From an uncultured Gemmatimonadales bacterium (GTDB taxonomy: Bacteria; Gemmatimonadota; Gemmatimonadetes; Gemmatimonadales; Gemmatimonadaceae): a stretch of DNA of 64,000 nucleotides. The notes below the pieces were generated by a model. The model saw only the letters and a program-made list of their open reading frames with translations, searched no databases and was not told the origin of the DNA. Position 1 is the first letter of the stretch. Each line of letters opens with the position of its first letter. Made by a program: the position numbers and the translations under genes. Where the stretch lies: NCBI GenBank assembly GCA_963851265.1, contig CAWKNZ010000012.1, positions 1 through 64,000 on the forward strand. The letters run 5' to 3'. This document shows positions 394 through 63,141 of this stretch, piece after piece.

Positions 394-3300
394 ATGCGCG
401 CGTCACCACCGCCCGTTGTTCCTCCCGCCCGACGGTTCGGCGCGTTGCCGCTCACCGTCGTCGTCCTCGCGCTTCCGGCCGTCGTGCGGGCGCAGGGAGC
501 GACGACCGTCACCGGCACCGTCACGAGCGAGGCCGGCCTGCCGCTCGCCCTCGCCAGCGTCAACATCCCGTCGCTCGGCCTCGGCGCGCAGACCAACAGC
601 CAGGGGCGGTACACGTTCGTCGTCCCGGGGGCCCGCTCGCTCGGCCGCACCGTCGACATCGCCGCGCGCCTCGTCGGGTACCGGCCCACCACGGCGCAGG
701 TGACGCTCACCGCGGGCGCGACGGTCACGCGCAACTTCTCGCTCGCCACCAACCCGCTGCGGCTGAGCGACGTGGTGGTCACCGGCTCGGGCACGACGAG
801 CACGCGCGAGCGCCTCGGCGTCACGGTCAGCTCGGTCGCGAGCGAGCAGATCGCGCGGTCGGCCGAGGTGAACGTCGTCGACGCGCTCGCCGCCAAGGCG
901 CCGGGCATCGAGGTGGCCTCACAGTCCGGCGACCCGGGCGCGGGATCGGGCATCATCCTGCGCGGCCTCAAGACCATCCAGGGCAACGGGCAACCGCTGT
1001 TCGTCGTCGACGGCCAGCCCATCGACAACTCGGTGATCGTCACCGACGCGTCGGACACCGGGTTCGGCTACTCCAACCGCGCGCTCGACCTCAACCCGGC
1101 GGACATCGAGACCGTCGACGTGCTCAAGGGCCCGTCGGCGGCCGCGATCTACGGGCTGCGCGCGGCCAACGGCGTCATCCTCATCACGACCAAGGCCGGC
1201 CGCGCGGGCGCGACGCGTTACCAGCTGGCGACCAACTTCACGCTCGACGACGTCAACCGCTCGATCCCGCTGCAGACGCAGTGGGGGCGCGGCTTCGTCG
1301 GGGTGACACCCACCTGCGTCGCCGACGCGCTCTGCGCCAACCGCTCGTGGGGGGCGGCGCTCCCCTCGGGGACGGCGACGTACGACCACTTCGGTGAGCT
1401 GTTCCGCACGGGCAACACGATCGACCCGACGCTGCAGGTCTCGGGCGGCGACGCGCAGCGCAGCTTCTTCCTCTCGGGCGGGACGCTGCAGCAGGAGGGG
1501 GTGTCGAAGGGGCCCAACAGCCACCTGAGCCGCAACACGTTCCGGCTGCGCGCCACGCAGCAGCTGACGGGCGCGCTGCGCATCGGCGGCAACGTCAACT
1601 ACACCGACCTCTCGCAGCGCGCCATCCAGAAGGGGAACAACCTCAACGGCCTGCTGCTCGGCTCCACGCGCCAGCCGCCCGAGTACAACCCGTACCCCTA
1701 CCAGACCGCCACCGGCCAGCAGCGCTGCTGGACGATGCCGATGCCGACGCTCCCGACGAGCACGTGCACGTTCGACGGCGGGCTGTGGGTGCAGAACGTG
1801 CCGCAGAACTCGGACGCGGTGGGGCGGACGATCGGCAACGTCGACGTCTCGTACGCGCCGGCGAGCTGGATCAACGTCGGCTACACGTTAGGCATCGACC
1901 AGTACGCCGAGCGGCGGCTGGAAGGGCTGCCGCCGTACAGCGCGGGCGACGCGATCACGGGCGAACTCTGGCAGGGCACGTTCACCAACCGCCAGATCGA
2001 CCACAACCTGGTCGCCACGCTCACCAAGCAGCTGCCGCGCGGCATCCGCGGGCAGCTGGTGCTGGGGCAGAACCTCAACTGGCGGCAGTTCCGCCGCGAG
2101 CAGGTGAAGGGCGTCGGCTACATCGACCCCACGCTCTACACGCTCAACAACATCGTCTCGTCCAACCTCACGCCGCAAAACGACCAGAACAACGTCAACC
2201 TCGCGGGCTACTTCAGCGAGGGGCGGCTCGACTTCGGCGACCAGGTGTACGCCACGGCGCGCATCCGCGCCGACCAGGCGTCGACGCTGCCGAGCACGGC
2301 CCGCACGGGCTACTTCCCGGGCGCGACGCTCGCGTGGAACGTGACCAACACGCTCGGGCACCGCGACCAGCGGGGGATCCTCACGTACCTCAAGGCGCGT
2401 GCGAGCTACGGCGTGGCCGGGCGCTCGCCCGATCCGTACCAGGTGCTCACCGTGTACGGCTCCGGCCCGCAGATCTACGCGTACGGCACCGGGTCGACCA
2501 ACACGAGCGCCGGCGGACTGGCCGGGCTGCACCTCGGCGACAACGCGTTCGCGCGCGGCAACCCCAACCTGAAGTTCGAGCGCACCGCCGAGGGAGAGGG
2601 CGGCTTCGACTTCGGGCTGTTCAACCAGCGCGTGGACGGATCGCTGTCGTACTACGGGCAGGCCACGCGCGACCTGATCTTCTACGTGCCCGTCCCCGGA
2701 TCGACGGGGTTCTTCTCCGCGCTGCAGAACGGCGCGCGGGTGACCAACAAGGGCGTCGAACTGCAGGTGAACGCGCGCCTGCTCGAGCGGCGCGCCGTGT
2801 CGTGGGACGTGGGCGTCAACTTCAGCCGCAATCGCAACCAGCTCGTCTCGCTCAACGGCGCCGACTTCGTGCTGCTGCCGGGCGGGTTCGGCAACAGCGC
2901 GGCCGTCCCGGGGCACCCGCTCGGCTCGTTCTTCTTCACCGACTTCGCGCGCTGCCGCTACGACGTCCCCGACAACCAGAACCTGCAGTCGACGGCGGCG
3001 GCGGACGGCGTGAACATCAACGCGGCCTGCCGCGCGGCCAAGGCGCCTAACGGCGCGATGTACATCGACGCCAACGGGTTCCCGATCCTCGACCCGGCCA
3101 ACCGGGTCTCGGGCAACCCCAACCCCAACTGGCTCGGCGGCTTCCGCACCGGCCTGCGCCTCTGGCAGCGCCTGTCGCTCTCGGCGCTCGTCGACGTGCG
3201 CCGCGGCGGCGACGTGTGGAACGGCACGCGCGGCGCGCTGCAGAGCTACGGGACGAGCGGCTACACGTCGTCACGCGCCATCTGCACCGGCACGCGGAGC

Positions 3301-3714: not shown

Positions 3715-3730
3715 CCGGGACCGCGCCGCC

Positions 3731-5149
3731 ATGACTTCCCGACTCTCCCGCGCGTTCTCGCGCCGCACGCTCGCCGCCGGCCTCGCGACGGCCGCCTGCC
3801 TCGCGACCGCCCCCGCCTGCAAATCCAACCTCACCGGCGGGGACCTCACCGACAACCCGAACGCCCCGTCCAAGGCGTCCATCAACCAGGAAATCGTCGC
3901 GGTCACCGCGATCAGCGGCGCGGCGCTCACCGCCGACGACAACCGCGTCATCTCGATCTGGATGCGGCAGATGGCCGGCACCGGCCGCCAGTGGCTGACC
4001 TACGACGGCCCGTACATCATCGACGAGAACTCGTTCGGCTCGTTCGCCAACTTCTACACCGGCGGGGGCCTCGTCGACATCCGCGCCATCCAGACCAAAG
4101 CGAAGGCCGCCAACGACCGCCTCTACCTCGGCGTCGCCGAGGTGTGGGAGGCGCTCGTGATGGGCTACGTCGCCGACTGGTGGGGCGACATCCCGTACCG
4201 ACAGGCCGCCGACCTCTCGGTCACGCAGCCGGCGCTCGACCCGCAGCAGCAGGTGTACGCCGACCTGCAGAAGCTGCTCGACGCCGCGATCGGCGACCTG
4301 CAGGCCGGCGGCACCGGGCCCGGCGCGTTCGACCTGATATATGGTGGTGACGCGAAGAAGTGGACCGCGCTCGCCCACACCCTCAAGGCGCGCCTCTACC
4401 TGCACACGGCCGAGCGCGACGCGTCGGCGTACGCGTCGGCGCTGGCGCAGGCGCAGCTGGGCATCGCCGACGCGACCGGCGACTTCCGCACGTACCAGAG
4501 CAGCACGGTGGGCGAGGAGAACCAGTGGTTCCAGTTCGCGCGCGGACGCGGCACCGACATCAGCAGCGGGTCGTTCCTCGTCAACCTGATGGCGACGCGC
4601 AACGCGGGGGGGCCGGACGCGCGCCTCACGCAGTACTTCGCGCCTAACGGCACGGGCAGGGTGGTCGGCGCCGACCCCGGGCAGGAGGGCGAGACGTTCT
4701 CGTACCTCAGCACGACGCGCGGCGACGCGGGATTCCGGCAGCCGCTCGTCACCGCGGCCGAGAACACTCTCATCCGCGCCGAGGCGCGCCTGCAGACGGG
4801 CGACCTCACGGGTGCGGCCGCCGACCTCAACACCGAGCGCGCGACGGCGGGGCTGCCGGCGGTTGCGAGCGGCCTGCCGCGGGCCGCGCTCTACCAGCAG
4901 ATCATCGAGGAGAAGTACGTCGCGCTGTTCCAGAACGCCGAAGTGTGGAGCGACTGGAAGCGCACCTGCTGGCCGAATTTCGCGCCGGCCAACGGCGCGC
5001 GCGTGATCCCGGCGCGCTTCTTCTACGGCGCCGACGAGCGCGGGACCAACCCCAACATCCCGTCGCCGAGCGCGGCGCCGCGCCGCAACTGGAACGACCC
5101 GGCGAACGCGACGGCACTGGACGGCAGTGCGTGTCTCGGGCAGGGGTGA
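3731..5149 (+). CDS. SusD/RagB-family lipoprotein
   Basis: Directly after SusC; signal peptide ending in Cys (APAC); WGDIPY, DLIYGGD..KW, IIEEKYVALF..EVWSDWKRT motifs. Confidence 0.93.
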   Translation: MTSRLSRAFSRRTLAAGLATAACLATAPACKSNLTGGDLTDNPNAPSKASINQEIVAVTAISGAALTADDNRVISIWMRQMAGTGRQWLTYDGPYIIDENSFGSFANFYTGGGLVDIRAIQTKAKAANDRLYLGVAEVWEALVMGYVADWWGDIPYRQAADLSVTQPALDPQQQVYADLQKLLDAAIGDLQAGGTGPGAFDLIYGGDAKKWTALAHTLKARLYLHTAERDASAYASALAQAQLGIADATGDFRTYQSSTVGEENQWFQFARGRGTDISSGSFLVNLMATRNAGGPDARLTQYFAPNGTGRVVGADPGQEGETFSYLSTTRGDAGFRQPLVTAAENTLIRAEARLQTGDLTGAAADLNTERATAGLPAVASGLPRAALYQQIIEEKYVALFQNAEVWSDWKRTCWPNFAPANGARVIPARFFYGADERGTNPNIPSPSAAPRRNWNDPANATALDGSACLGQG

Positions 5150-5192
5150 GCCCCGCGGCGGGGCGGCGCTGACGCGGTGCTGAAGCCGCGCG

Positions 5193-5246: not shown

Positions 5247-5295
5247 GTTGCCGCGTCGACCTCGCCCCGTCGACGCGGCCCAGGTCAGCCCCAGG

Positions 5296-7170: not shown

Positions 7171-7389
7171 GCGTTCTCCTCCGGCAAGGGTGGGGCGGCG
7201 CGACGCGCGTAGCAGGTTCGCTGCGCGTCGCGACGATGCGATCCCGCCCACGACGGAGCAAGAGCGCGCGCCCCCCCGCCGGCCCCGGATCGGGGGCCCG
7301 CGGGGGGGCGCGGCGGCGCTGACGCGATTAACGCGCGTTAGGTGTTGAAAACCACGCCGTCGAACCGGCACCAGCGCGGAGCGTCAGCT

Positions 7390-9594
7390 TCACCGCCCCG
7401 ACGCCGCGCCCGACGTCGTGACCAGCCCGCGCTCCTCCATCAGCGGCGCGATCTTCGGGTCGCGCCCGGCGAACGCGCGGTACATCGCGCCCGCCTCCGT
7501 CGTGCCGCCGCGGGAGAGGATCATGTCGCGGAAGCGCTGCCCGTTCTCGCGCGTCATCCCGCCGTGCTCCACGAACCACGCGTACGCGTCGTCGTCGAGC
7601 ACCTCGCTCCACATGTACGCGTAGTAGCCGGCCGAGTAGCCGCCGCCCCAGATGTGCGCGAAGTAGGGCGTGCGGTAGCGCGGCGGCACCTCGGGCATCG
7701 CCACGCCGAACTGGCGCAGCGCGTCCTGCTCGAACGGGCCCACGTCCTGCCGCGGGGCGCTCGCGGGGAGCGCGTGCCAGGCGAGGTCCAGCAGCGACGC
7801 GGCGAGGTACTCGGTGGTGGCGAAGCCCTGGTTGAACGTGCGCGCCGCGCGGATGCGCTCGGCGAGCGGCTGCGGCATCGGCGCGCCCGTCTGGTAGTGC
7901 GTCGCGTAGTGCGCGAACACGCGCGGCTCGAGCGCCCAGTGCTCGTTGAACTGCGACGGGAACTCGACGAAGTCGCGCGGCGTGTTGGCGCCGGCGAACG
8001 TCGGGTAGGTGACGTGCGAGAACATCCCGTGCAGCGCGTGGCCGAACTCGTGAAACATGGTGCGCACGTCGTCCGACGTGAGCAGCGCGGGCTGCCCGGG
8101 CGCGGGCTTCTGGAAGTTCGCGACGTTGTAGACCACCGGCTTCGTACCGCGGAGCGCCGACTGGTCGACGAACGTGTCCATCCACGCGCCGCCGTTCTTG
8201 TTGTCGCGCTTGAAGTAGTCGCAGTACCAGAGCGCGAGCGGGCTGCCGTCCTTGTCGAACACCTCGAACACGCGCACGTCGGGCTGGTAGACCGGAAGGT
8301 CGTGGCGCTCCTTGAAGGTGAGGCCGTACATCTGGTTGGCCGCGTAGAAGACGCCGTTCTGCAGCACGTGGTTCAGCTCGAAGTACGGCCGCAGCTGCGC
8401 CTGGTCGAGGTCGTAGCGGGCCTTGCGCACCTGTTCGCTGTAGTACTGCCAGTCCCACGGCTGCAGTCGGAACCCCCCGCCCTGCCGGTCGATGAGCGCC
8501 TGCATCTGGGCGGCCTCGCCGCGCGCCTTGGCCGTGGCCGGCGGCGCGAGCTGCGCGAGGAGGCCGATCGCGTGCTCGGGGGTCTTCGCGCCCTGGTCGT
8601 CGAGCTTGTACGCGGCGTACGACGGGTAGCCTAACAGACGCGCCTTCTCGGCGCGGAGCTGCGCGAGGCGCGTGACCACGGCGCGCGTGTCGTTGGAGTC
8701 GCCGCGCTCGGCGCGCGTGGTCGAGGCGACGAAGAGGCGCTCGCGGAGGGCGCGGTTCTTCAGCACCGCCATGAGCGGCTGCTGCGTCGTGTTCTGGAGC
8801 GGGATCACCCACTTGCCCGACATCCCGCGCTGCCGTGCCGCGTCGGCGGCGGCGGCGATCTCGCCGGCGCCCAGGCCCTCGAGGTCGCGCACGTCGTCCA
8901 CGACCACCGCCCCGGCCTTGGTCGCCGCGAGCAGCTTCTTCTGGAACGTGGTCGTGAGGTTCGACTCCTCCTCGTTCAGCGCGCGCACGCGGCGCTGGTC
9001 CGCTTCGGCCAGGTTGGCGCCCGCGCGCACGAAGTCGCGGCGGTAGCGCTCGACGAGGAACAGCTGCTCGGGGGTGAGGCCGAGCGAGGCGCGGCGGTCG
9101 TAGACCGCCTGCACACGGCGGTAGAGAGCCGGGTTGAGGAAGATCGCGTCCGCGTGGGCCGCGAGCTTGGGCGCCACCGCCGTCTGCACACGCTGCAGCG
9201 TGTCGTTGGTGTTCGCGGCGACGATGTTGAAGAAGGTCTTCGTCGCACGCGTGAGCAGCTCGCCGGAACGCTCCATCGCGACGATCGTGTTGTCGAACGT
9301 CGGCGGCGCGCTCTGGTTCGCGATGGCCTCGACTTCGGCGAGCTGCCGGCGCATCCCGTCCTCGATCGCCGGCTCGTAATCGGCGTTGCGGATGCGGTCG
9401 AAGGGGGGTGCCTCGTAGGGGAGCGAACTCGCGGCGAGGAGCGGGTTGGCAGACGAGGGGGCGGGCGCGGCAGACGGCGCCGGGGCGGCGGCCGGGGCGG
9501 GCCCGGCGACCGGGGCCGGCGCCGCGGCGGGCGGCGCGTGCGCGCAGGCGGCGACGGCCGCCGCAGCAAGGAGCGGAAGACGGGTGCGGAGCAT
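7390..9594 (-). CDS. dcp: M3-family peptidyl-dipeptidase Dcp-like metallopeptidase, lipoprotein-type signal
   Basis: HEFGH zinc motif, RDFVEFPSQ, KNGGAWM, GYSAGYYAYMWSEVL; VAAC lipobox. Confidence 0.9.
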   Translation of the reverse strand: MLRTRLPLLAAAAVAACAHAPPAAAPAPVAGPAPAAAPAPSAAPAPSSANPLLAASSLPYEAPPFDRIRNADYEPAIEDGMRRQLAEVEAIANQSAPPTFDNTIVAMERSGELLTRATKTFFNIVAANTNDTLQRVQTAVAPKLAAHADAIFLNPALYRRVQAVYDRRASLGLTPEQLFLVERYRRDFVRAGANLAEADQRRVRALNEEESNLTTTFQKKLLAATKAGAVVVDDVRDLEGLGAGEIAAAADAARQRGMSGKWVIPLQNTTQQPLMAVLKNRALRERLFVASTTRAERGDSNDTRAVVTRLAQLRAEKARLLGYPSYAAYKLDDQGAKTPEHAIGLLAQLAPPATAKARGEAAQMQALIDRQGGGFRLQPWDWQYYSEQVRKARYDLDQAQLRPYFELNHVLQNGVFYAANQMYGLTFKERHDLPVYQPDVRVFEVFDKDGSPLALWYCDYFKRDNKNGGAWMDTFVDQSALRGTKPVVYNVANFQKPAPGQPALLTSDDVRTMFHEFGHALHGMFSHVTYPTFAGANTPRDFVEFPSQFNEHWALEPRVFAHYATHYQTGAPMPQPLAERIRAARTFNQGFATTEYLAASLLDLAWHALPASAPRQDVGPFEQDALRQFGVAMPEVPPRYRTPYFAHIWGGGYSAGYYAYMWSEVLDDDAYAWFVEHGGMTRENGQRFRDMILSRGGTTEAGAMYRAFAGRDPKIAPLMEERGLVTTSGAASGR

Positions 9595-9692: not shown

Positions 9693-9699
9693 CCCGAAC

Positions 9700-11378: not shown

Positions 11379-12299
11379 GTGCCTCTCCTGCCCCCCTGCG
11401 GCCGTCTCGCCGCCGCGCTCGTCCTGCTCCTCGCGGCGCGCGCGGGGTCTGCCGGCGCCCAGTCGGCGCCGGCAGACCCCGCGCCCCCGCCGCCCGCCGC
11501 GATCGCCACCGACCCGCCGCACGACGCGCAGCACCCGGCACGCATGCAGGTGCTGCACATCCCGTCGGGCGGCGTGCGCATCAACGGCGTCGCCTACCTC
11601 GCCGCGGGCGCGGGGTCGCACCCGACGCTCGTCCTGCTGCACGGCCTGCCCGGGAACGAGAAGAACCTCGACCTCGCCCAGGCGGTGCGCCGCGCGGGGT
11701 GGCACGTGGTCACGTTCAACTACCGCGGCTCGTGGGGGAGTCCGGGCGCGTTCCGCTTCGCGCAGACGCTCGGCGACGTGGAGGCGGTACTCGCCTTCCT
11801 GCGCGACACGGCCACCGCGCGCGCGTTAGGCATCGACACCGCGCGCCTGGTGCTCGCCGGACACAGCATGGGCGGCTGGGCCACCGTCCGCACCGCGGCG
11901 CGCGACCGCGGCCTGCGCGGCGCGGTGCTCATCTCCGCCGCCGACATGGGGCTGAACGGCGTACGCGGAGCCGCCGCGCGCCCGCAGCTCGTCGCGCTCA
12001 TGGCCGACAACATGGAGTCGCTCGCCGGCGTCACCGCGGAGCAGATGGCCGACGAGCTGATCGCGAACGGCGAGCGCTGGCGCTTCGAGCGCGCCGCCGC
12101 GGGCCTCGCGCGGACGCCGCTCCTCGTGCTCACCTCCGACGACGGGCTCGCGCCGGCCGCCGACTCGCTGGCGGCGACGCTGCGCGCCGAGGGGAACGCG
12201 CGCGTGACGACCACGCACGTCGCGACCGACCACGCGTGGTCGGACCGGCGTGTGGCGCTCGAGGCCGCGGTCGTGCGCTGGCTGGACGCGCTTCGGTAG
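11379..12299 (+). CDS. Secreted alpha/beta hydrolase
   Basis: Signal peptide, LLHGLPGNEKN, YRGSWGS, GHSMGG nucleophile motif, TDH. Confidence 0.88.
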   Translation: MPLLPPCGRLAAALVLLLAARAGSAGAQSAPADPAPPPPAAIATDPPHDAQHPARMQVLHIPSGGVRINGVAYLAAGAGSHPTLVLLHGLPGNEKNLDLAQAVRRAGWHVVTFNYRGSWGSPGAFRFAQTLGDVEAVLAFLRDTATARALGIDTARLVLAGHSMGGWATVRTAARDRGLRGAVLISAADMGLNGVRGAAARPQLVALMADNMESLAGVTAEQMADELIANGERWRFERAAAGLARTPLLVLTSDDGLAPAADSLAATLRAEGNARVTTTHVATDHAWSDRRVALEAAVVRWLDALR

Positions 12300-12362: not shown

Positions 12363-13277
12363 TCAGTCGAGGCGGACGACGACCTTCCCCTTCGCGTGCG
12401 CCTCGTAGGCGCGGTGCGCGTCCGCGACCTGGTCGAGCGCGAACGTCGGACCTGGCTGCGCCTGCAGCGCCCCCGCGTCGAACAGCGCGGCCAGGCGCGC
12501 GAGGCGCGCGCCGTCGGGTTTGACGCCCATGCTCTGCAGCGAGATCCCGCGCGGCGCCTCGGGCAGGTGGCCGGGCAGGAGCGTGACCGCGCGCCCGCCG
12601 TCGCGGACGACGCCGAGCGCGGCGGCGAGCACGTCACCGCCTAACGGATCCAGCAGCGCGTCGACGCCGCCCCGCGCGGCCGCGTGGACGGCGCCGGCCC
12701 AGTCGCCGCGCGAGTCCACCGCCGTCGCGGCGCCGATCGCCCGCAGGTGCTCGTGGTCCGCCGTGCCGCCCTGCGCGATCACCGTCGCGCCGCGCTGCTT
12801 GGCGAGTTGGACCGCGAACGCGCCGACGTTCCCGGCGGCCGCGAGGACGAGGATCGTCTGCCCCGCCGCGAGCTGCAGCAGGTCGAGCGCCTCGTCCGCG
12901 GTCATCACCCCCACGGGAACGCCGCCGGCGTCCACGGCGGACAGGCGTTCCGGTCGCCGTGCCACCGCCGACGCGGGTGCGACGACCAGCTCGGCCGTCG
13001 CCCCCTTCAGCGCGGGGTAGCTCCACACGGCATCGCCGACGGCGAAACCGTCGACGTTGGCGCCGACGGCCGCCACCGTCCCGGCGAGTTCGGCGCCCGG
13101 GACGTAGGGCGTCTCCTGCGGGCCGAAGCCGCCGTCGCGCATCTTCGTGTCCCACGGGCCCACGCCCGCCGCCGCGACGCGGATGAGGAGTTCGCCGGGG
13201 CCGGGCGAGGGGTCAGGAAGTTCGGCGACGCGAAGGACGTCGGGGCCGCCGGTGGCCGTGACTTGCGCTGCACGCAT
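12363..13277 (-). CDS. NADP-dependent oxidoreductase (MDR / quinone oxidoreductase family)
   Basis: GGPDVL, PYVPGAELAG, AAAGNVGAFAVQLAK, KGKVVV; start trimmed to ATG 13277. Confidence 0.9.
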   Translation of the reverse strand: MRAAQVTATGGPDVLRVAELPDPSPGPGELLIRVAAAGVGPWDTKMRDGGFGPQETPYVPGAELAGTVAAVGANVDGFAVGDAVWSYPALKGATAELVVAPASAVARRPERLSAVDAGGVPVGVMTADEALDLLQLAAGQTILVLAAAGNVGAFAVQLAKQRGATVIAQGGTADHEHLRAIGAATAVDSRGDWAGAVHAAARGGVDALLDPLGGDVLAAALGVVRDGGRAVTLLPGHLPEAPRGISLQSMGVKPDGARLARLAALFDAGALQAQPGPTFALDQVADAHRAYEAHAKGKVVVRLD

Positions 13278-14878: not shown

Positions 14879-16119
14879 GCCCTGGCGCTCGGGCGTGCTC
14901 CGCGGGAGCGCCGCGGGCGCGTCGAAGACGGCGCGTCCGAAGGCGGCGCGGCCGGCGGCGTGTTAGGCGCGACCGCGCCGGAGCCCGCGCGCGGGTAGTC
15001 ACGCCACAGCCACTCCAGCGCTTCGGGCAACGTCTGCCGCGTCACGGCCCGCTCGCAGTGCCCGGCGTCGCGCGCGAACACGAACTGGTACGGGTACTTC
15101 CGCGCCGCGAGCGCCGCGGCCATGCGCTCGTTCGCGGCCACCCAGTCGTGCATGCCGTCGCGCATCACGTTGGGGTCGAGCAGGTCGCGGTCGCCCACCG
15201 CCATCCAGAGCCGGAGCGGCCTGGCGGGCGACGCGGGGATGAGTCGCTCGTGGAACTCCCACGCGCCGTGCGGCGTCTCGGCGCTGTGCGGCCACTGCTG
15301 GTTGACGAAGGTGCCCGAATACGTGAGCACGCGGTGATACCACTCCGGGTGGTACCACGCCATGATGAGCGCCGCCGACCCGCCCGAGCTGCACCCCGTC
15401 GTCGCGCGCCCGTCGGGGTCGCGCGTCAGGCGCACGCCGGCCTCCCGCTCGACCCGCGGCAGCACCTCGGTCTCGACGAACTCGGCGTAGCGGCCCGACA
15501 TCGTGTCGTACTCCAGCCCCCGCTCGCTTCCCTGTGCGTCGCCGCCGCCGTTGCCGATCGAGATCGCGACCATCGCCGGCACGCGCCCTTCGGCAATCAG
15601 ATTGTCGAGCGCGGTGAACAGCCCCGGATCGGGCCCGTCGGCGCCGACGATGAACGGCGCGGCGGTGCCGGGCACGTACTGCCGCGGCACGTAGACGGCC
15701 ACCTGGCGCGTGTACGGCGCCGCGTGACTGGTAGTCACGACGAGCGCGGCCGGATCGGCCGGGTCGGGAGTGCCGAACGTGCCCGGCTCGCGCGCGATGC
15801 CGGGGAAGAGCCGGCTGTCCACCGACCGCATCGTGAACCGGTACACCGTGCCGTGCGGCACCGACTCCCGCACCGTCATCTCGGCCGCGGGCGGGTGCGT
15901 CGGGCCGATCACGAAGTTGCCGTCGGCGTTGGGCGGTGGCACGGCGCCGTCGGGAAGATCGGTGGCGGCGACGTACCCGGGCGCGTGCGGGTCTCGGGTC
16001 GGGGGCGCGGCACGGGCACCGCCCTGCGCGTCCGCCGCACGGCTGACGGCCAGCACGCCCAACAAGCCCCACGCGCCGAGCGCGCACCGTCGCACGGTGC
16101 GCCGTCGCGCTCTCTGCAT
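14809..16119 (-). CDS. Secreted enterochelin-esterase-like alpha/beta hydrolase
   Basis: Signal peptide, VAVYVP.QY, ERGLEYD, GCSSGG, GHC..TLPEALEWLW; GGAGG RBS; last ~45 aa look out of frame. Confidence 0.85.
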   Translation of the reverse strand: MQRARRRTVRRCALGAWGLLGVLAVSRAADAQGGARAAPPTRDPHAPGYVAATDLPDGAVPPPNADGNFVIGPTHPPAAEMTVRESVPHGTVYRFTMRSVDSRLFPGIAREPGTFGTPDPADPAALVVTTSHAAPYTRQVAVYVPRQYVPGTAAPFIVGADGPDPGLFTALDNLIAEGRVPAMVAISIGNGGGDAQGSERGLEYDTMSGRYAEFVETEVLPRVEREAGVRLTRDPDGRATTGCSSGGSAALIMAWYHPEWYHRVLTYSGTFVNQQWPHSAETPHGAWEFHERLIPASPARPLRLWMAVGDRDLLDPNVMRDGMHDWVAANERMAAALAARKYPYQFVFARDAGHCERAVTRQTLPEALEWLWRDYPRAGSGAVAPNTPPAAPPSDAPSSTRPRRSRGARPSARACRRPRSSTSCGPPRARSTRCTA

Positions 16120-18359: not shown

Positions 18360-19070
18360 CTAGTGCCTAACCGTCACGGCGATACCCCGCGCCGCGCCCG
18401 CGGCCCGCAGCGTCGGCCCGGCGGCGCGGACGAGGTCGGCGACGGCCGCCCCCGCGGCCGTCGCCAGGCTGTCGACCACCGCCACCATCACGTTGGGTGG
18501 CACCACGGACCGCTCCGCGGACGCGCTCCCGCGCCAGAGCACCGAGTCGTCCTCCGCGCGCACCAGGAGCGCGTCGAGGCGCACGCTCGCCGACACGCGC
18601 GACCCGCGGTCGACTTCCTCGAACTCGCGCACGGTCGCGCGCCAGACGAGCCCGCGCGCGGGGCCCGCGGCGGCCCCGTCCTGCACGCGCGTCGCGCCGC
18701 CGGGCAGCTGCCGCAGCGCCTCGGCGGTGCGCGTGGCGAGCACGGCGCCGAGCGGGAGGGCCCACTCGCGGTTGGGGTACGTGCCGTATTCGGTTTCGCC
18801 CACGCGGTAGACGATCTCGGGGCGCGCGTACACGCCCGGCGTCGCGTACGGCTCGACCGAGACCAGCGTCGCGACCGAATCGCCCGGAGCCGCCGCGGCC
18901 GGCGGCAGCGGGCGAAGGCGGTACAGCTCGCGCGCGGGGAGTGTGCCCCCGAAGCAGCCGGCGAGAGCGCCCGCGGCGACCACGTAGGCGGCGAGCGCCG
19001 GTGCGGCGAGCGCGCGCGCGGAGGGCGCGCTCGCGGCGGCGGGGGGCGGGGCGGAACGAGTTAGGCGCAT
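18360..19070 (-). CDS. PqiC / ABC-transport auxiliary lipoprotein
   Basis: LAGC lipobox, LYRL, IVYR..YPNREWA..P, REFEE; directly downstream of the MlaD gene. Confidence 0.75.
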   Translation of the reverse strand: MRLTRSAPPPAAASAPSARALAAPALAAYVVAAGALAGCFGGTLPARELYRLRPLPPAAAAPGDSVATLVSVEPYATPGVYARPEIVYRVGETEYGTYPNREWALPLGAVLATRTAEALRQLPGGATRVQDGAAAGPARGLVWRATVREFEEVDRGSRVSASVRLDALLVRAEDDSVLWRGSASAERSVVPPNVMVAVVDSLATAAGAAVADLVRAAGPTLRAAGAARGIAVTVRH

Positions 19071-20074: not shown

Positions 20075-20154
20075 GGATGCCGCGCACGACGGGCAAGATC
20101 GGTGCGCAGCACGCGCGTTGCGCGCGACCGGCCGCGCGCGACCGGCCGAGCTCG

Positions 20155-25659: not shown

Positions 25660-25664
25660 CGCGC

Positions 25665-45471: not shown

Positions 45472-46965
<1,494 letters not shown>

Positions 46966-46973
46966 CGTCACGC

Positions 46974-48044
46974 ATGCCCGCAACCGTCACCACCACCGCG
47001 TTCGGCGCCGCGCCCGACGGGCGCGCCGTCGCCCTCCACACGCTCGACGCCGGCCCCGTCCGGGTCGGCGTGACGCCGTACGGCGCCCACCTCACCTCCA
47101 TCGCGGTCCCCGACCGCGACGGCCGCCCCGCCGACGTCGCGCTCGGCTACGACGACCTCGCCGGCTACGTCGCCGACACCGCCTACTTCGGCGCGCTCGT
47201 CGGGCGGTACGCCAACCGCATCGCGCGCGGCCGCTTCACGCTCGACGGCGCCGCGTACACGCTCGCGATCAACAACCCGCCTAACGCGCTGCACGGCGGC
47301 GTGGTCGGCTTCAACCGCGTGCTGTGGGACGCCGAGCCCTTCACGGCGGGCGGCGCGGCGGGCGTGGTACTCCGGCACACGAGCCCGGCGGGCGACCAGG
47401 GGTACCCGGGCGCGCTCGACGTGCGCGTGACGTACACGGTCACCGCCGACGCGCTCGCGATCGACTACCACGCGGCGGCCGACGCGCCCACCCCGGTGAA
47501 CCTCACGCAGCACACGTACTGGAACCTCGCCGGCCACGCCGCGGGCTCGGTGCTGGAGCACGAGGTCACCCTCGGCGCGTCGCGCTTCACGCCGGTCGAC
47601 GACACGCTGATCCCGACCGGCGAGCTGCGGGGGGTGGCCGGCACCCCCTTCGACTTCCGGCGGCCGCACCCGATCGGCGCGCGCATCGACGCCGACGACG
47701 CGCAGCTCCGCGCCGGCGGGGGCTACGACCACAACTTCGTGGTCGACGCGCCGTCGCCCGGCGCGTTCGCCTTCGCGGCGCGCGTGTACGAGCCGCGCAG
47801 CGGGCGGGTCCTGGAAGTGCACACCACCGAGCCCGGCGTGCAGTTCTATTCGGGCAACATGATCCCCGACGGGCTCGCCGGAAAGGGCGGCGCGCGCTAC
47901 GCCCGGCGCGGCGGCTTCGCCCTCGAGACGCAGCACTACCCGGACTCGCCCAACGAGCCCGCGTTCCCGTCGACGATCGTCCGCCCGGGCGCGCCGTACG
48001 CCTCGCGGACCGTGTACCGCTTCTCGAGTCAGCCGGCGGGATGA
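46974..48044 (+). CDS. galM: Aldose 1-epimerase (galactose mutarotase)
   Basis: GRYANRIA, LHGG, GYPG, NLTQHTYWNL, GYDHNF, QFYSGN, LETQHYPDSPN. Confidence 0.93.
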   Translation: MPATVTTTAFGAAPDGRAVALHTLDAGPVRVGVTPYGAHLTSIAVPDRDGRPADVALGYDDLAGYVADTAYFGALVGRYANRIARGRFTLDGAAYTLAINNPPNALHGGVVGFNRVLWDAEPFTAGGAAGVVLRHTSPAGDQGYPGALDVRVTYTVTADALAIDYHAAADAPTPVNLTQHTYWNLAGHAAGSVLEHEVTLGASRFTPVDDTLIPTGELRGVAGTPFDFRRPHPIGARIDADDAQLRAGGGYDHNFVVDAPSPGAFAFAARVYEPRSGRVLEVHTTEPGVQFYSGNMIPDGLAGKGGARYARRGGFALETQHYPDSPNEPAFPSTIVRPGAPYASRTVYRFSSQPAG

Positions 48045-52832: not shown

Positions 52833-53580
52833 GCCGCAAAGAAGCGAGGTTCTCGTCGTCCAGCAGGTCGCAAACGAGCCGCCGGGCACCCTCCTCCGCG
52901 CCCTCGCGGCGTCGGGGCTGGCCGCGCGCGTGCTGCACCCGTACGCGGGCGAGCCCGTTCCGGCCGACGCGTCCGGGTTGGGCGGGCTGGTCCTGCTCGG
53001 CGGCCCGCAGGCGGTGTACGAGCAGGACGCGCACCCGTTCCTCGCCGACGAGCTGCGCCTCGTGGACCGCGCCCTCGCGCGCGGCACGCCCGTGCTCGGC
53101 ATCTGCCTCGGCGCGCAGCTGCTCGCGCACGCGTTAGGCGCCGCGGTGCGGCCGGGGGGCGCGGTCGAGATGGGGTGGCTGCCCGTGACGCTCACCGCGG
53201 CCGGACGCGCGGATCCGGTGTTGGGCCCGCTCGCGGCCGACGGCGGTCCGTCGGGCGGCGAGCCGTTCGTCCCCTTTCATCAGCACGGCGACGTGTTCGA
53301 CCTGCCCGCGGGCGCGACGCTGCTGGCGCACTCCGAGCGTACGGCGCACCAGGCGTTCCTCGCGCGCGGCGCGGGCGGGGCCGCGGCGTACGGCGTGCTG
53401 TTCCATCCGGAGGTGGACGGCCCGCTGGTCGAGACCATGCTGGCCGAGTTCGGCGCGGCGGCGGCGGCGGCGGGGTGGGACGTGGACGCGATGCGGCGTG
53501 ACGCGCCGGCCCGGCTGGCCGCGCTCGCGCCGCGCGCGGCCGGCCTGTTCGCGCGATGGGCCGCGCTCGGCACACGTTAG
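52831..53580 (+). CDS. Class I glutamine amidotransferase-like protein
   Basis: LLGGP..VY, LGICLGAQL, HGDVFDLP, FHPE (Cys-His-Glu triad). Confidence 0.9.
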   Translation: MPQRSEVLVVQQVANEPPGTLLRALAASGLAARVLHPYAGEPVPADASGLGGLVLLGGPQAVYEQDAHPFLADELRLVDRALARGTPVLGICLGAQLLAHALGAAVRPGGAVEMGWLPVTLTAAGRADPVLGPLAADGGPSGGEPFVPFHQHGDVFDLPAGATLLAHSERTAHQAFLARGAGGAAAYGVLFHPEVDGPLVETMLAEFGAAAAAAGWDVDAMRRDAPARLAALAPRAAGLFARWAALGTR

Positions 53581-53731
53581 GCGTCGGCCCATGTCGAGCC
53601 CGCCGCCGCGGGCGCGCGTCGCCCAACCGCCACGAAATCGTCGCGCCGCGCGGCCGGCCGAGGCACCGATTCTGCCGTCCCCGCCGGCGCGCGGGCGAGG
53701 GCGCCCGCATCACACCGGGAGGAACGGGACC

Positions 53732-54220
53732 ATGGCGATCAACGGACTTCAGGAACTCTTCGTGCAGGGCATGCAGGCGGTGTACGACGCGGAGCAGCAG
53801 GGCATCAACGCCGCGCCCGCCATCGCCGACCGGGCGACGCACCCCGAGCTCAAGCAGAAGCTGCAGGAGCGCACCGACAAGGGGCGCCAGCAGGTGCAGC
53901 GGCTGGAGCAGGCCATCCAGCAGGCCGGCGGCACGCCGCGGGGCGAGCCTAACGAGATCGCGAAGGGCATCCTCGCGGTCGGCAACAAGATCATGAACGA
54001 GACGCAGGACCCCGACGCGCGCGACGCGGGCATCATCGCCGCGGCGCAGATCGCCCTGCACTACCACATGGCGGCGTACGGCACGCTGCGGTCGTACGCG
54101 GACGCGCTCGGCAACCAGCAGGCCTCACAGCTCCTGCAGCAGACGCTCGACGAGCGGAAGCGGCAGGACCAGGACATGTCGCGCCTGGCCGAGCAGGTGA
54201 TCAACCCCAAGGCCGCGTAA
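53732..54220 (+). CDS. Ferritin-like YciE/YciF (DUF892) protein
   Basis: LQELF...VYDAEQQ, RDAGIIAAAQ..HY.MAAYGTL, LLQQTLDE; GGAGG RBS. Confidence 0.85.
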   Translation: MAINGLQELFVQGMQAVYDAEQQGINAAPAIADRATHPELKQKLQERTDKGRQQVQRLEQAIQQAGGTPRGEPNEIAKGILAVGNKIMNETQDPDARDAGIIAAAQIALHYHMAAYGTLRSYADALGNQQASQLLQQTLDERKRQDQDMSRLAEQVINPKAA

Positions 54221-54257
54221 GGCGGGCCGCCCGGGGCCGTGCGGCGGCGCGGGGTCG

Positions 54258-57486: not shown

Positions 57487-57516
57487 CCCGCGGGACGGCC
57501 TGGCCCGCGGGACCGC

Positions 57517-59778
57517 CTAACTCGCGAGCGCGCGTGCCCGCCGACGTCCGGCGGCAGCGCGCACGACCTCTGCCCGCTCCGCCGGGGCCGACACCGTGCC
57601 CGCGATCGAGCCCGACAGGTGGAACCGCTCGACCATGGCGCTGAGTGCCGCCGACTGCCGGACGAGCACGCCGGCCGCGTTCGCGGCGTCGTCGGCGCCC
57701 GCCGCCGTGCGCTCGGTGACGCGGTGCACCTGGGCGACCTCGGTGCTGATGTGGGCGACGTCGTCGGCCTGGGCGCTGCTCGCGGCCGTGATCTCCCCGA
57801 CGCGACCGGCCATCTGGTCCACGTCGGCGTTGATCTCGCGCAGGCTGCCGACCACCTCCGCGTTCAGCGCCACGCTCCGGACCGCGGTCTCGGTCCCCTG
57901 GGCGATCAGCGTCGCGACCTGCCGGGCCGCTTCGGCCGATCGCTGAGCGAGGGCGCGCACCTCTCCGGCGACGACCGCGAAGCCACGCCCCGCGTCGCCC
58001 GCGCGCGCGGCCTCGACCGCCGCGTTCAGCGCCAGGAGGTTGGTCTGCAGCGCGATCTCGTCGATCGTGCGGACGATCTGCGCCGTCGCTTCGCTCGAGC
58101 GGCGCATCTCGGCCATCGACTCGGAGAGGCGCTCCATACGGACCACGCCCCCCGCGGCCCGCTCCCGTGCCTGCTCCGCGAGGTTGCGCGCGTCGCCCGC
58201 GCTCGCCGCGCTGCTGCGCGCGGCGGCGGTCACGCGCTCGATACGCCCGGCGACCGTCTGGAGACTCGACGCCTGCGCGCTCGAGCCCTGGGCGAGGGTG
58301 CGGCTGCCCGCCGTGATCTGCTCGCCCGCCGTCGCGACCTCGCCCGCCGCCGCGCGCACCTGGGCGAGTGCGCCGTCGAGCGTCCCGACCGCCCCGTTGA
58401 GCGCGGTCTGGATGGAGCCGTACGCGCCGTGGTACTCACCCGTCATGCGGGCCGAGAGGTCGCGGTCGGCGACGCGCTCGAGCACCGCGCGCGTGGCCTG
58501 CACCGGCGACTCGACCGCGCTGAGGGCGCGGTTCATCCCGGCCACGAGCTCTGCGAACGCGCCCTCGTAGCGCGTCGCGTCGGCGCGCTCGCTCAGGCGC
58601 CCGGCTTCCGCGGCGGTCGCCAGCGACGACACGTCGCTGGCGAGTCGCTGCAGCGTCGCGCCGAGCGACGCGAACCCTGCGCCGAGCCGGTCGTTGGCGC
58701 TGCGCGCCACGCACGCGACCGAGGTGTCTCCGGCGGCGAGACGCGTGGCCACGTCGGCGAACGCCCGCTCGGCCGCGGTGACGGCCGCGAAGGCCGCGGA
58801 CACCTGCCCGACCTCGTCGTCGCGCTCGAGGGTCGGCACGCTCGCGTCGAGGTCGCCGACGGCGACGCGCCTGGCGACCGTGCTCAGCGCGGTCAGCGGG
58901 CCGAGCGCCCGGCGGGTGAAGCCCCACAGGAGCGCACAGCCGAGGACCGCGCAGAGCGCGGCGGCCGCGACGACGACGTTGGCCGCGTGACCGGCCGCAT
59001 TCCGCGCGCTGGCTGCATACGGCGCGAACGGAAAGCCCGCGTAGATGATGCCGATCACGGCGCCGGAGGCGTCGGTGATGGGCAGATACTGCGTGAACTC
59101 GTCGACACCCGCGACCGTGGCCCGGCCGTGGTACGCGCGGCCCGACGCGAAGGCCGCGCCGGCACCGGCCGGGCGGTGCGTCGCCGTGTCCTGCGCCGGC
59201 ATCACCGTGAACACCGCACGCGTGGGGCGCCCGTGCGCGTCGGGGCGCGTGACCGTCGTCGCGAGGCGGAGCGCGCGCCCCATGGGCGCGGACCCGACCG
59301 TCGGGTCGGCGGACGGCGTCGCCGACGCACGCGGCGGCAGGCGGACGGCGACCGTGAACTCCGCGCCGGTGATCTCGGTGGCGCGGTCGAGCGCGTGCTG
59401 CACCACCGCGCGGCCGATCACGGGCGTGGTGCCCTTCGCGAGCAGGGCCGACACCGACTCGGTGGTCCGGTACGGGTCCTTGCGGCCGTTGCCGTTGTAG
59501 AAGGCGAGCGCCGTGTCCCCGCCGGCGGGGCGCACGAGCGTCCAGGCGCCCGGCGCCGCGTCGTCGAGCAGCGCGCGCGCGGTACTGAGCGCGAACGAGA
59601 GGCGGTCGTCCGCCTGGGTGAGCTGTGCGCGGAGCGTCGCGTCGGCGATCTGCGAACGGGCGAAGAAGCCGACGACGGCGATGGTGAGGACGAGCGTCGC
59701 GGCGCTGATGCCGGCGATCCGTGTGCTGAGGCGGATGCGGAGCAATTGCCGCCGCAGCGCGGCAATGGTAGGAGGCAC
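57517..59778 (-). CDS. Methyl-accepting chemotaxis protein (Cache sensor, HAMP domains)
   Basis: [43 protein letters not shown]; two TMs; [13 protein letters not shown]ache motif; start uncertain. Confidence 0.92.
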
Positions 59779-60037
59779 TCGGCGGGGGGTGGCAGGGGAG
59801 GTATCGCACCGAGACGATCGTGATCGCCGGAAGTCCCGTCTGCGCCACTCGGTTGGACGTAGGGAAGGGCGGATTTCGCTGCCCAGGGCGATCCGGTTGG
59901 CGCGACGACGTGGGGGCCCGGCCCGGCCGCACGCGCGCGGGGCTGGACGCCGCGCCGGGCACGGGACGCATATTCGTTCGGGCCGTCGCGGCGCCGTCCC
60001 GTGCGACCGTCCGGCCCGGTTCCCCTCCCCGCACCGC

Positions 60038-61270
60038 ATGCTCATGCCCCGTCGCCGTCCCGCCCTCGTCGCCCTGCTCGGCGCCGTCCTTGCCGCACCC
60101 GCCGCGTCCGCTCGTGCGCAGACCCCGGCCGGGCCAGCCGCTGTGCCTGCCGCCGACGACCCCATCAAGGGCCTCGTCGGCCGCCTCGACCTGGAGCGGT
60201 ACAAGGCGACGATCAAGGGCCTCACGCAGTTCGGCGACCGGCGCCAGGGCACCGACCGCAATCGCGCCGCCGTGGACTGGATCGAGGCCCAGCTCAAGAG
60301 CTACGGCTGCACCAACACCGAGCGGATCACGTACGACTACCAGCCGCCCCCGCCGCGGCCCGGGTCGGAGAACGCGTACCGTGCGCGTGTCGCGACGTCG
60401 GCGCCGGGCGGCGCGCGTCTCCGGGGCAGCCAGCTGCCGATCGGCGTGAACAGCGACTCGCTCGCGCAGCCCGACGCGCGGCTCCGCGCGCTGAACGCGC
60501 AGGCGAGCGCGCCGGGGCGGCGGCAGGAGGTGTACTGCACCAAGGTGGGGAGCACGCACCCGGGCGAGATGTACATCGTGGGCGCGCACATGGACGGCAT
60601 CGGCTGGGGCGAGGCCGCAAACGACGACGGGTCGGGCACCGCGCTCGTGATGGAGCTCGCGCGCGTGTTGTCCGCGCCCGACGTGCAGACGGACCGCTCG
60701 ATCCGCTTCGTCCTGTGGAACAACGAGGAGACGGGGCTCAACGGCGCGCGCGCGTACGTGGAGCAGCGGCAGGCGTTGCAGGGCAAGGAGTCGCCCGCCG
60801 GGTCTGGGCGGTACCCCGAGCCGCGGTGGTTAGGCATGATCCAGCACGACATGATGCTCTTCGACCACGGCATGCCCCGCCCCGACGGGACGATGAGCCG
60901 CGAGCAGCGCCCGGAAGCCGACGTGAACGTCGAGTTCCAGAGCGCCTCGAAGATGGCCGCCGGGGCGCAGCAGCTGGCGTGGGCGCTCGCGAACGCGAAC
61001 GAGGCGTACGCGACCGACTACCCGGCGACGGTGGGGCAGCACATGACCAACACGGACTCCGGGCCGTTCCAGGACCTCGTCCCGGCGGTCAGCCTGCGCG
61101 AGAACGAGCGCGGGTCGCAGATCGGCGCCGGGTGGGATCCGCAGTGGCACCAGCCGACGGACCTGTACGCGACCTACAACGACAGGGACTTCCGGCTGGG
61201 CCTCAACGCGGCGCAGACGACGTTAGGCGGGGTGGCGCGGCTGGCCGGGGCGACGATGCGGGGCCGGTGA
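60038..61270 (+). CDS. Secreted M28-family peptidase
   Basis: VGAHMD, ANDDGSG, NNEETG, HDM, WHQPTD; signal peptide. Confidence 0.88.
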
Positions 61271-61272
61271 GC

Positions 61273-63141
61273 ATGAACACCCGCCGCCAGTTTCTCGTCC
61301 GCGCGCCGCTCGGCGTCGCCGGCGCGCTCGCCGCCTGCCGCCACGCGCCCGCGTCCGAGTCCCAGCCGCCCGTACCCGGCCCGGGCGGTACCCCGACCGG
61401 AGCCCCCGCCGCCGCGCCCGCCGCCGCGCCCGCCGGGGCGCCGGCAGGCGCGCCGCCCGCGTTCAACACCGCGCCCCCGGTCGGGCCCGAGGTGTCGACG
61501 GCCACGTTCGCGGAGGCGGAGAAGCTGATGCAGGTGCAGCTCACCCCCGCGCAGCGGCGCATGGCCGCCGACAGCTGGCGCACGTCGATGGCGCCTCTGG
61601 TGGAGCGGCGCACCGGCCCCAAGAAGCTCGCGCTCCCCGACGGGCTCGCGCCCGCGACCCGCTGGACGCCCGGCGTCGGCGGGGAGCCGATGGGGGCGGC
61701 GCGCGACCGCTTCGTGCGCACCCCGGCCGACTCCGCTCCGCTCCCGACGAGCGATGCCGACATCGCCTACGCGCCGGTGACGCGCCTCTCGCGCTGGATC
61801 GAGTCGCGCCAGCTCACCTCCGAGCGCCTCACGCGCATCTACCTCGAGCGCATCCGGCGCTACGACCCGAAGCTGCGCTGCGTCATCACCCTGGTCGCCG
61901 ACGCGGCGATGGTCGAGGCGCGGCGTGCGGACGCCGAGATCGCCGCCGGGCGCTACCGCGGGCCGCTGCATGGTGTGCCGTACGGCGTGAAGGACCTGCT
62001 CGACACCGCGGGCGTTCGCACGACTTGGGGTGCGGAGCCGTTCCGCGACCGGGTGCCGAACGCGGACGCGGCCGTCGTGGCGCGGCTGCGCGCCGCGGGG
62101 GCGGTGCTCGTCGCCAAGCTCAGCCTCGGCGCGCTCGCACTCAACGACATCTGGTTCGGCGGGCAGACGATGAACCCGTGGCTCCTGGAGGAAGGCGCGT
62201 CGGGGTCGAGCGCGGGGCCCGGCGCGGCGACCGCGGCTGCGCTCGTCGGGTTCTCGGTGGGGAGCGAGACGGGCGGCAGCATCATCAGCCCGAGCATGCG
62301 TTGTGGCGTGACGGGACTCCGCCCGACGTACGGCCGCGTCGCGCGCACGGGCGCGATGACGCTCGCCTGGTCGCTCGACAAGCTCGGGCCGATGACGCGG
62401 AGCGTGGAGGACGCGATGCTGGTGCTGCAGGCGATCACCGGCCCCGACGCGGGCGACGTGGCGAGCGTGCCGAGCCGGCTCGACTACGACGCGACCGCGG
62501 GAGTGCGGGGGCTGCGCGTGGGGTACGTGCCGGCGTGGATGCGGGAGGCGCCCGCCACCGACGTCGACCGCGCCGCGCTCGACGCGGTGCGCGCGTTAGG
62601 CATGACCGCGGTCCCGGTCACCTTCCCCGACTGGCCCTACGACTCGCTCAACCTGGTGCTCTTCGCGGAGGCCGCGGCGGCGTTCGAGGAGTTGACGCTG
62701 AGCGGGCGCGCGGACCAGCTGCGCGCGCAGGTGCCCGACGCGTGGCCCAACCTGTTCCGCGAGGCGCGCTTCCTCTCGGCCGTGGACTTCGTGCAGACCG
62801 ACCGCCTGCGGCGTCGCGTCGCGGAGGAGATGGGGCGCGTCATGTCGCAGGTCGACCTGCTGCTCGTGCCTTCGCTGCGCGACGAGATGCTCGTGATCTC
62901 GAACAACACCGGGCACCCGTCGCTCACGCTCCGCACGGGGTTCGTGCGCGTGGCCGAGGCGCGCAGCGACTGGGCGCCCGACCCGGCCCACCCGCTGCCC
63001 AGGTTCGACCCGCCGCGGCGCGTGCCGCACGGCGTGACGCTCATCGGGCGGCTGTTCGACGAGGGGACGATCGCGCGCGCGGGGCTGGCGCTCGAGCGCG
63101 CGTCGGGGGTGGTCGCCGAACGGCCCCCGCAGTTCGCCTGA
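61273..63141 (+). CDS. Amidase-signature enzyme with Tat/lipoprotein signal
   Basis: TRRQFL..LAAC; GPLHGVPYGVKD, SGSSAG, GSETGGSI..P...CGVTGLRPT. Confidence 0.92.
   Translation: MNTRRQFLVRAPLGVAGALAACRHAPASESQPPVPGPGGTPTGAPAAAPAAAPAGAPAGAPPAFNTAPPVGPEVSTATFAEAEKLMQVQLTPAQRRMAADSWRTSMAPLVERRTGPKKLALPDGLAPATRWTPGVGGEPMGAARDRFVRTPADSAPLPTSDADIAYAPVTRLSRWIESRQLTSERLTRIYLERIRRYDPKLRCVITLVADAAMVEARRADAEIAAGRYRGPLHGVPYGVKDLLDTAGVRTTWGAEPFRDRVPNADAAVVARLRAAGAVLVAKLSLGALALNDIWFGGQTMNPWLLEEGASGSSAGPGAATAAALVGFSVGSETGGSIISPSMRCGVTGLRPTYGRVARTGAMTLAWSLDKLGPMTRSVEDAMLVLQAITGPDAGDVASVPSRLDYDATAGVRGLRVGYVPAWMREAPATDVDRAALDAVRALGMTAVPVTFPDWPYDSLNLVLFAEAAAAFEELTLSGRADQLRAQVPDAWPNLFREARFLSAVDFVQTDRLRRRVAEEMGRVMSQVDLLLVPSLRDEMLVISNNTGHPSLTLRTGFVRVAEARSDWAPDPAHPLPRFDPPRRVPHGVTLIGRLFDEGTIARAGLALERASGVVAERPPQFA

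Follow-up and report, generated by a model that had tools for sequence, protein, structure and literature searches.

The heptamer GTTAGGC, with its complement GCCTAAC, is repeated throughout the first 64,000 nucleotides of contig CAWKNZ010000012.1 of an uncultured Gemmatimonadales bacterium (assembly GCA_963851265.1). This whole stretch, called the window here, is the beginning of contig 12 in genome G000 (4.60 Mb, 12 contigs). Copies were taken as exact matches on both strands, and 100 dinucleotide-preserving shuffles of the window served as the null. The window contained 30 exact copies, 13 on the + strand and 17 on the − strand, against a mean of 2.12 and a maximum of 7 in the shuffled windows. 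An earlier account made from the letters alone, the sequence-only reading, had placed at least 30 copies in the window; the count was exactly 30, and each was recovered where it had been placed. The G+C content of ~76% assumed there was close to the measured 0.71–0.78 (4-kb bins).

Genes were called by codon-usage scoring (3,674 genes, ~88% of G000), and every statement on frames depends on these calls. Eighteen copies in the window encoded Leu-Gly as G TTA GGC. Eight of them were on the + strand, at 1887..1893 (in a + strand gene), 11825..11831, 36659..36665, 44729..44735, 53133..53139, 60829..60835, 61222..61228, and 62595..62601. The other ten were on the − strand, at 8629..8635 (in a − strand gene), 12639..12645, 20793..20799, 21498..21504, 25938..25944, 27729..27735, 32669..32675, 37978..37984, 38296..38302, and 39897..39903. 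Five copies were read as Pro-Asn (G CCT AAC), of which those at 3045..3051 and 4642..4648 were on the − strand within + strand genes, that at 22308..22314 was on the + strand within a − strand gene, and those at 47279..47285 and 53947..53953 were on the − strand. Four copies supplied stop codons. Two formed GCC TAA, at 20154..20160 (+, ending a − strand gene) and 46960..46966 (−, ending a + strand gene), and two formed GT TAG, at 53576..53582 (+, ending a + strand gene) and 57515..57521 (−, ending a − strand gene). One copy lay in the Val-Arg frame GTT AGG C (18365..18371, −), and two, at 14962..14968 and 19060..19066 (both +), were intergenic according to the gene calls used. The earlier frame split held for the 18 Leu-Gly and four stop-codon copies; it had counted six Pro-Asn copies where there are five, and its remaining "other frames" correspond to the GTT AGG C copy and the two intergenic ones. 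The near copy it had noticed at 7337 reads GTTAGGT (7337..7343, +), with one mismatch at the last base.

The whole genome carried 1,762 copies of GTTAGGC, about one per 2.6 kb, and they were present on every contig. It was the most over-represented 7-mer of G000, with 160, 96, and 127 copies expected under Markov models of order 1, 2, and 3, respectively. A maximal-order model masked the word because its own sub-words were equally enriched. The spelling was strict: 1,762 of the 1,794 TTAGGC hexamers were preceded by G, and single-base variants were rare unless they were ordinary codon words (GTTAGCC 36, CTTAGGC 10, GTTAAGC 15, and GTTAGGT 27). The flanking positions were also constrained. Position −1 was C in 79% and T in 14% of the copies, and position +7 was G in 54%, A in 22%, and T in 5%, so that the true word is Y-GTTAGGC-R, i.e., (C/T)GTTAGGC(G/A). 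The 8-mer occurred 708 times in forward and 688 times in reverse orientation.

The placement of the copies followed codon cost. Genome-wide, 992 copies were sense G TTA GGC, 201 were antisense G CCT AAC, and 285 were intergenic; stops were formed by 113 copies as GCC TAA and 78 as GT TAG, and the two frames with a cost of two rare codons held 71 and 22 copies. Synonymous contexts were filled at 9.2% for x-Leu-Gly (991/10,768) and 13.9% for x-Pro-Asn (201/1,447), rising to 16.6% and 21.4% for the 8-mer, respectively; the frames with two rare codons were filled at 0.7% and 3.8%. Enrichment thus held under a codon-context null (9–21% occupancy) as well as under the Markov nulls. The 3:1 excess of sense copies arises because there are more x-Leu-Gly contexts. 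Sense and antisense contexts were filled alike, and therefore the signal lies in the DNA and is indifferent to orientation. A signal in the peptide, the codons, or the mRNA is thereby ruled out, and the proteome showed no excess of Pro-Asn over Asn-Pro (ratios 1.17 vs 1.20). The word accounted for 992 of the 1,286 TTA codons of the genome (77%), in agreement with the earlier impression that this codon hardly occurs elsewhere, and for 126 of the 430 TAA stops. The gene for tRNA-Leu(UAA) is retained at C2:1177464-1177546 as one of five Leu tRNAs among 62 tRNAs, and three quarters of the codons it serves originate in the word.

Word orientation tracked gene orientation along the contigs of G000 and nothing beyond it. 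In co-directional spacers 85 copies were co-oriented and 73 anti-oriented. A dif-like site, GGTTTACATAA-CATATA-TTATAAGCGAG, was found at C2:1368943-1368970 (C2:1368954) beside a flip in gene orientation from + to −. This region is probably the replication terminus, and it was used to fix leading and lagging strands; the dif-like site does not contain GTTAGGC. Presumed leading-strand contexts were filled at 180/1,883 (9.6%) and lagging-strand contexts at 57/754 (7.6%), and the ratio of 1.26, about 1.6 standard errors, was not significant. The word resembles Chi and the FtsK-orienting polar sequences (KOPS) or architecture-imparting sequences in being short, asymmetric, and over-represented. Unlike these, which are skewed along the replichores, its replichore polarity is at most weak, in line with the absence of strand polarity claimed from the window.

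The copies were spaced more evenly than chance at short range. As a null, the 1,193 in-gene Leu-Gly and Pro-Asn copies were re-placed among real contexts in 200 randomisations. In-gene gaps below 100 bp, 200 bp, and 500 bp numbered 2, 10, and 81, against 35.8 ± 6.3, 69.4 ± 8.3, and 159 ± 10 in the randomised sets, respectively. When all copies were taken, pairs closer than 200 bp numbered 27 in the same and 20 in opposite orientation (67 expected each), and pairs closer than 500 bp numbered 115 and 82 (169 expected each). Short-range avoidance was also seen in the relative G012 (31 vs 62.7). By spacer type, density was highest in convergent spacers (62 copies in 58 kb), compared with 158 in 327 kb of co-directional and 62 in 170 kb of divergent spacers. 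This result indicates a pressure toward about one copy per kb of any DNA, which is weaker near an existing copy and is opposed by codon use.

Only one word-free gap in G000 was statistically exceptional, the 45-kb interval C1:182876-227962 (~5e-5 genome-wide). It contains gidA, parA, parB, and mnmE. Canonical parS had no match in G000 at up to two mismatches; a variant was found instead, as two perfect parS-like palindromes TGTGGCACGTGCCACA at 192709 and 195715 within the gap. The orthologous blocks, which are more diverged than average, held two copies in G004 and one in G001, where 13.8 were expected, and in both genomes copies lay 0.5–8 kb from parS. G012 had no such gap, with copies 0.7–0.9 kb from parS. 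A general exclusion of the word around the origin or centromere was therefore rejected. A search for ParB among plasmids gave no record from this group.

Forty-one relatives were surveyed by counting the 8-mer, together with an even sample of 161 genomes from the phylum; three word-poor genomes that are unpublished, G011, G085, and G124, are counted in the tallies. At least 300 copies were present in 11 of the 41 relatives, namely all five genomes of the genus and G008, G012 (6,360 copies), G017, G018, G036, and G040. Four relatives had 170–300 copies, and 26 had 65 or fewer. In the phylum sample six genomes had at least 300 copies and three more at least 170. All nine belong to two families of the same order, and one of them, G172, was not above its own reversed-word control. 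Outside the order, none of 48 genomes exceeded 70 copies. In a quick rpoB tree of 21 genomes, with support from the Shimodaira–Hasegawa-like approximate likelihood ratio test only, rich and intermediate genomes occupied at least five separate places, and their poor sisters had 6- to 300-fold fewer copies. Contrasts in copies per Mb include genus g1 (300–475) against G009 (1), G023 against G021, G016 against G007, G012, G018, and G019 against the genomes next to them, and, inside a single genus, G173 against G172 and G152. The flanks of 251 sites in G012 showed C 75% and T 16% before the word and G 45% and A 26% after it. These are the preferences of G000 despite a G+C content of 62% rather than 74%, which argues for one shared reader. 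A substitute word was sought in 200 kb each of the poor relatives G006 and G021; none was found, and the top 6- to 8-mers were ordinary codon words. In 200 kb of G000, used as a positive control, the word was readily recovered.

The copies in rpoB and rpoC encode conserved Leu-Gly pairs. Every other genome spells the Leu at these places CTC or CTG, with GGC next, and the word is therefore the derived state. Few of these positions were common to different genera. In the G012 genes Asp was changed to Asn three times, yielding CCT AAC. G000 and its congener G001 were compared over a 330-kb alignment at 81.8% identity, with 26 copies at gapped columns set aside. Seventy-two copies were shared, 96 were found only in G001, and 49 only in G000. 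Per-copy retention was 50%; the control words GCTSGGC were retained at 35% and 7-mers in general at 37%. The 145 non-word orthologues were mostly GCTCGGC (27), GTTGGGC (21), and GCTGGGC (9). Point mutations thus both create and remove the word, under a pressure that is moderate and persistent.

Eight candidate readers were tested by their presence across the 41 genomes, and none of them tracked word richness. The PilQ-like secretin and ComEC were each found in 40/41 genomes, alongside PilA-type pilins. A PilA paralogue near parAB occurred in rich and poor genomes alike (45–55% identity), and a FimT/GspH-like pilin was found in 37/41. The integron integrase IntI was intact in many poor genomes, among them G005, G006, G009, and G014, and was decayed or not found in several rich ones: the richest genome, G012, had only three frameshifted pieces, and G008 and G018 had no match above Xer level. 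A Type IIG-like methylase with an SNF2 neighbour was present in 40/41. RecC was found in 1/41 (G017, 4% contamination). The AddB-like protein of an AddAB-like helicase-nuclease pair of G000 (C3:244523-249942) matched 9/41, and this query had no match in the rich genomes G001, G003, G004, G008, G012, and G040. The pair is probably an acquired gene. Its AddB-like part, queried from G000, had no match in three good-size congeners and 54% identity in G023. By gene content, the transformation machinery is thus present and Chi-type readers are not.

The sequence-only reading had taken the word for a signal at the DNA level, placed at intervals of ~2 kb and prevailing over codon preference, and had named as candidates an uptake or self-recognition sequence, a modification site, and a site of a chromosome-organising protein. 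The observation was confirmed. The three outcomes named there as refuting it, namely no enrichment under a codon-aware null, equally frequent single-mismatch variants, and most TTA codons outside the word, were all contradicted by the data. The interpretation was supported in every part testable here: the word fills contexts irrespective of orientation once coding opportunity is counted, the intergenic copies lack polarity, and replichore polarity is weak at most. The most likely reading, which we put forward tentatively, is that the word is an uptake or recombination self-tag like the DNA uptake sequence (DUS) of Neisseriaceae and the uptake signal sequence (USS) of Pasteurellaceae. A DUS- or USS-like tag fits best because of the orientation independence, the frames set by cost, the sufficiency of one copy per segment, the density peak in unconstrained DNA, and a turnover with raised retention. 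In such a scheme the DNA itself would carry the signal, (C/T)GTTAGGC(G/A), and the duplex would be read whichever way the word points. A process favouring any segment of ~0.5–1 kb with at least one copy would maintain about one copy per 1–3 kb. Biased horizontal exchange would be the likeliest such process: tagged DNA would be taken up, or would survive and recombine, more often in natural transformation, so that uptake or recombination would be the step at which the word is read. The word would build up by molecular drive, as DUS and USS do, and would be restrained by codon-usage selection, which would explain the frames it occupies.

The likeness to these systems is extensive. DUS and USS are short asymmetric words with hundreds to thousands of exact copies (PMC2817400, PMC1939737), they are equal on the two strands without replication polarity, and they are maintained by mutation plus drive. 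Their frame bias set by codon cost is described in PMC2817400; like the present word, they are placed in the cheapest coding frames, with some amino-acid changes tolerated. USS are evenly spaced (Karlin 1996, as cited in PMC1939737), and here too the copies are more even than chance and denser in unconstrained spacers. There are also differences. The core is 8–9 bases here and 9–12 there, the distribution within the family is patchy, and the spelling equals an integron recombination core. The host phylum also differs, as to our knowledge neither competence nor uptake bias has been described in Gemmatimonadota. A further parallel is the highly iterated palindrome HIP1 (GCGATCGC) of cyanobacteria, which PMC5861425 describes as a hyper-abundant 8-mer within genes, conserved above expectation and variable in abundance by lineage. 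The word of G000 shares these features; unlike HIP1, it is not palindromic.

The sequence-only reading did not recognise GTTAGGC as a described motif. Here it overlooked that the word is a canonical integron core site: attC sites have the core GTTRRRY and the inverse core RYYYAAC, integrases bind GTTRRRY (PMC3053210), and GTTAGGC fits this core. The literature gave us no description of dispersed GTTAGGC, and the bare word retrieves primer lists only. The few copies in word-poor relatives formed one-strand runs ~550 bp apart, which are integron cassette arrays with attC sites ending in C-GTTAGGC, and position −1 was C in 14/14 of the sites shown. G000 itself has a cassette array with small open reading frames at C10:194558-204508, with attC sites of 90–112 bp (GCCTAACG...CGTTAGGC). 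The R' box of these sites is C-GTTAGGC-G, nine bases alike, and the word is borne on both arms. The match to intI lies far from this array, in two pieces 2.1 kb apart (C6:5244-6044 and 3005-3166).

The dispersed copies are not attC sites. An inverse-core partner 45–150 nt upstream was missing for 1,638 of the 1,762 copies (93%), and for 1,609 of 1,762 random positions, so that the partner is no commoner than at random. Attachment-site-like placement occurred only at the C10 array and in one pair, C6:1591/1701. Against attC and attI, with which they share identical letters including the flanking C, 93% of the G000 copies are lone, without an inverse core or hairpin; they sit in ordinary genes as synonymous codons, are independent of an intact integrase, and were not seen as insertion points. 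A role as a cassette landing pad was rejected as well, since 0/13 clean insertions between G000 and G001 were flanked by the word on both sides; one 3.1-kb insertion adjoining a copy had no attC.

Several results weigh against an uptake or recombination tag. Identity with the binding core of an intracellular recombinase is unexplained by uptake alone, and the 45-kb parS/parAB gap, nearly word-free in two congeners, could point to an intracellular reader. On the quick rpoB tree the trait undergoes five or more changes of state, none of them with a change of spelling, and the two poor relatives searched, G006 and G021, have no substitute word of the kind known as DUS dialects. Enrichment in the shared part of the genome was rejected, as density in G001 was 0.61 per kb in blocks shared with G000 and 0.65 per kb in unaligned DNA. 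The competence genes are equally present in word-poor relatives, and no receptor tracks the trait, the PilA paralogue and the FimT/GspH-like pilin being found in rich and poor genomes. Our literature search found no uptake or transformation study for this group and no paper joining the phylum with uptake sequences.

An alternative is that a sequence-specific intracellular DNA-binding protein, perhaps a relative of IntI or the Xer tyrosine recombinases, or a nucleoid protein, reads the word. The copies would then serve chromosome structure, or would be harmless lone half-sites that soak up integrase. We consider this explanation unlikely and keep it in view because of the absence of dialects, the repeated gain and loss with fixed spelling, and the identity with the recombinase core. 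The R' box shared with the attC sites fits it, as does the use of double-stranded genomic sites by integrases (preprint 10.1101/2022.09.11.507474). The only exceptional gap holds parS and parAB, where a protein blocking the sliding of ParB or SMC would be counter-selected. Opposite-orientation pairs below 500 bp were fewer than same-orientation pairs, which would fit avoidance of functional two-arm sites. A link to nucleoid structure has been drawn for HIP1 (PMC5861425), the nearest parallel among hyper-abundant words without a known function. Against such a reader, IntI does not follow richness, being broken in G012 and intact in poor genomes, the dif-like site lacks the word, and G012 carries copies within 1 kb of parS. 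The missing inverse cores and the 13 clean insertions, none with the word on both sides, also speak against it.

A further reading, in which the conserved Type IIG-like adenine methylase and its SNF2 helicase partner target the word as GCCTAAC-R and it is kept as a modification or self mark, is improbable. The locus (C7:579717-585511) encodes a 1,141-residue protein (C7:582089-585511) with Eco57I, MmeI_Mtase, and N6_Mtase domains, whose best defence-library matches were Type IIG enzymes and DrmMI, and an adjoining DrmD-like SNF2 helicase. Enzymes of this family are known to read asymmetric words of 6–7 bases ending in AC, and a [DNS]PP[YFW] screen of the called genes gave no other large candidate for a DNA adenine methylase. 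Genomes usually avoid restriction targets, however, and this word is enriched. The gene is also shared by rich and poor relatives and was uninterrupted in 14/15 of those examined (G021 was frameshifted). Interruption by stops in poor genomes was considered and rejected, as tblastn showed natural gene ends read through. The C-terminal part, presumed to recognise the target, did not group the rich genomes: its identity to G000 was 47.5–48.7% in rich and 41.4–47.8% in poor members of the family, and 33–35% for rich and poor in the other family. Among the ten papers listed in a literature search, none was a methylome study with the word. For a restriction or defence-type gene, so wide a distribution with identity following phylogeny is unusual.

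Regeneration of the word by neutral mutation or biased repair, in the way that very-short-patch repair restores its target, is likewise improbable. The fast turnover between the congeners, with 96 and 49 lineage-specific sites, and the frequency of one-step neighbours such as GTTGGGC among the non-word orthologues agree with it. The change from CTC or CTG to TTA needs two steps toward A and T, however, against a G+C content of 74% and with all eight positions specified. A process acting site by site would not make copies repel below 500 bp, nor does retention above that of the control words fit it, and a crude motif screen gave no C5-methylase candidates. A Chi-like hotspot shielding the cell's own DNA from a helicase-nuclease, for which the shape of the word and the AddAB-like pair would speak, is close to refuted by the near absence of RecC, the missing AddB matches in most rich genomes, the non-significant replication polarity, and the equal repulsion of opposite- and same-orientation copies.

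Returning to the uptake or recombination tag, its spelling may have been taken from the integron R box, so that cassette DNA would be tagged automatically. We regard as quite unlikely, in its full form, the proposal that this is a Gemmatimonadales DNA self-tag, the first outside Proteobacteria, spelled as the cassette core and coupling natural transformation to cassette harvesting, with an accessory reader gained or lost at least five times. If it were true, a system favouring tagged DNA, at uptake or at recombination after uptake, would automatically favour cassette arrays, with their one to two copies per 0.5 kb. We know of uptake-type self-tags from two proteobacterial families only, and an independent third example, from a phylum common in soil, would establish them as a general outcome of biased DNA exchange. 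Such a reader has proved elusive even for USS; for the present word, the 25- to 300-fold differences in copy number between sister lineages offer a clean comparative route to it. With the word identical to the integron core, a connection between transformation and cassette capture can be put to the test. The word also distorts codon statistics, through its share of TTA codons and TAA stops, makes off-frame stops, and can serve as a marker of the taxon in metagenomes.

Copies fused head to head form perfect palindromes, GTTAGGCCTAAC in rpoC of G012 (L035, alignment column 182-183) and GCCTAACGTTAGGC at C1:176716 of G000. The top 9-mer of G000 under the maximal-order model was TAGCGCTTG/CAAGCGCTA, with 33 copies against 8.4 expected, and several 7-mers around AGCGCT were also prominent; these may reflect a second, minor word or a restriction-site effect.

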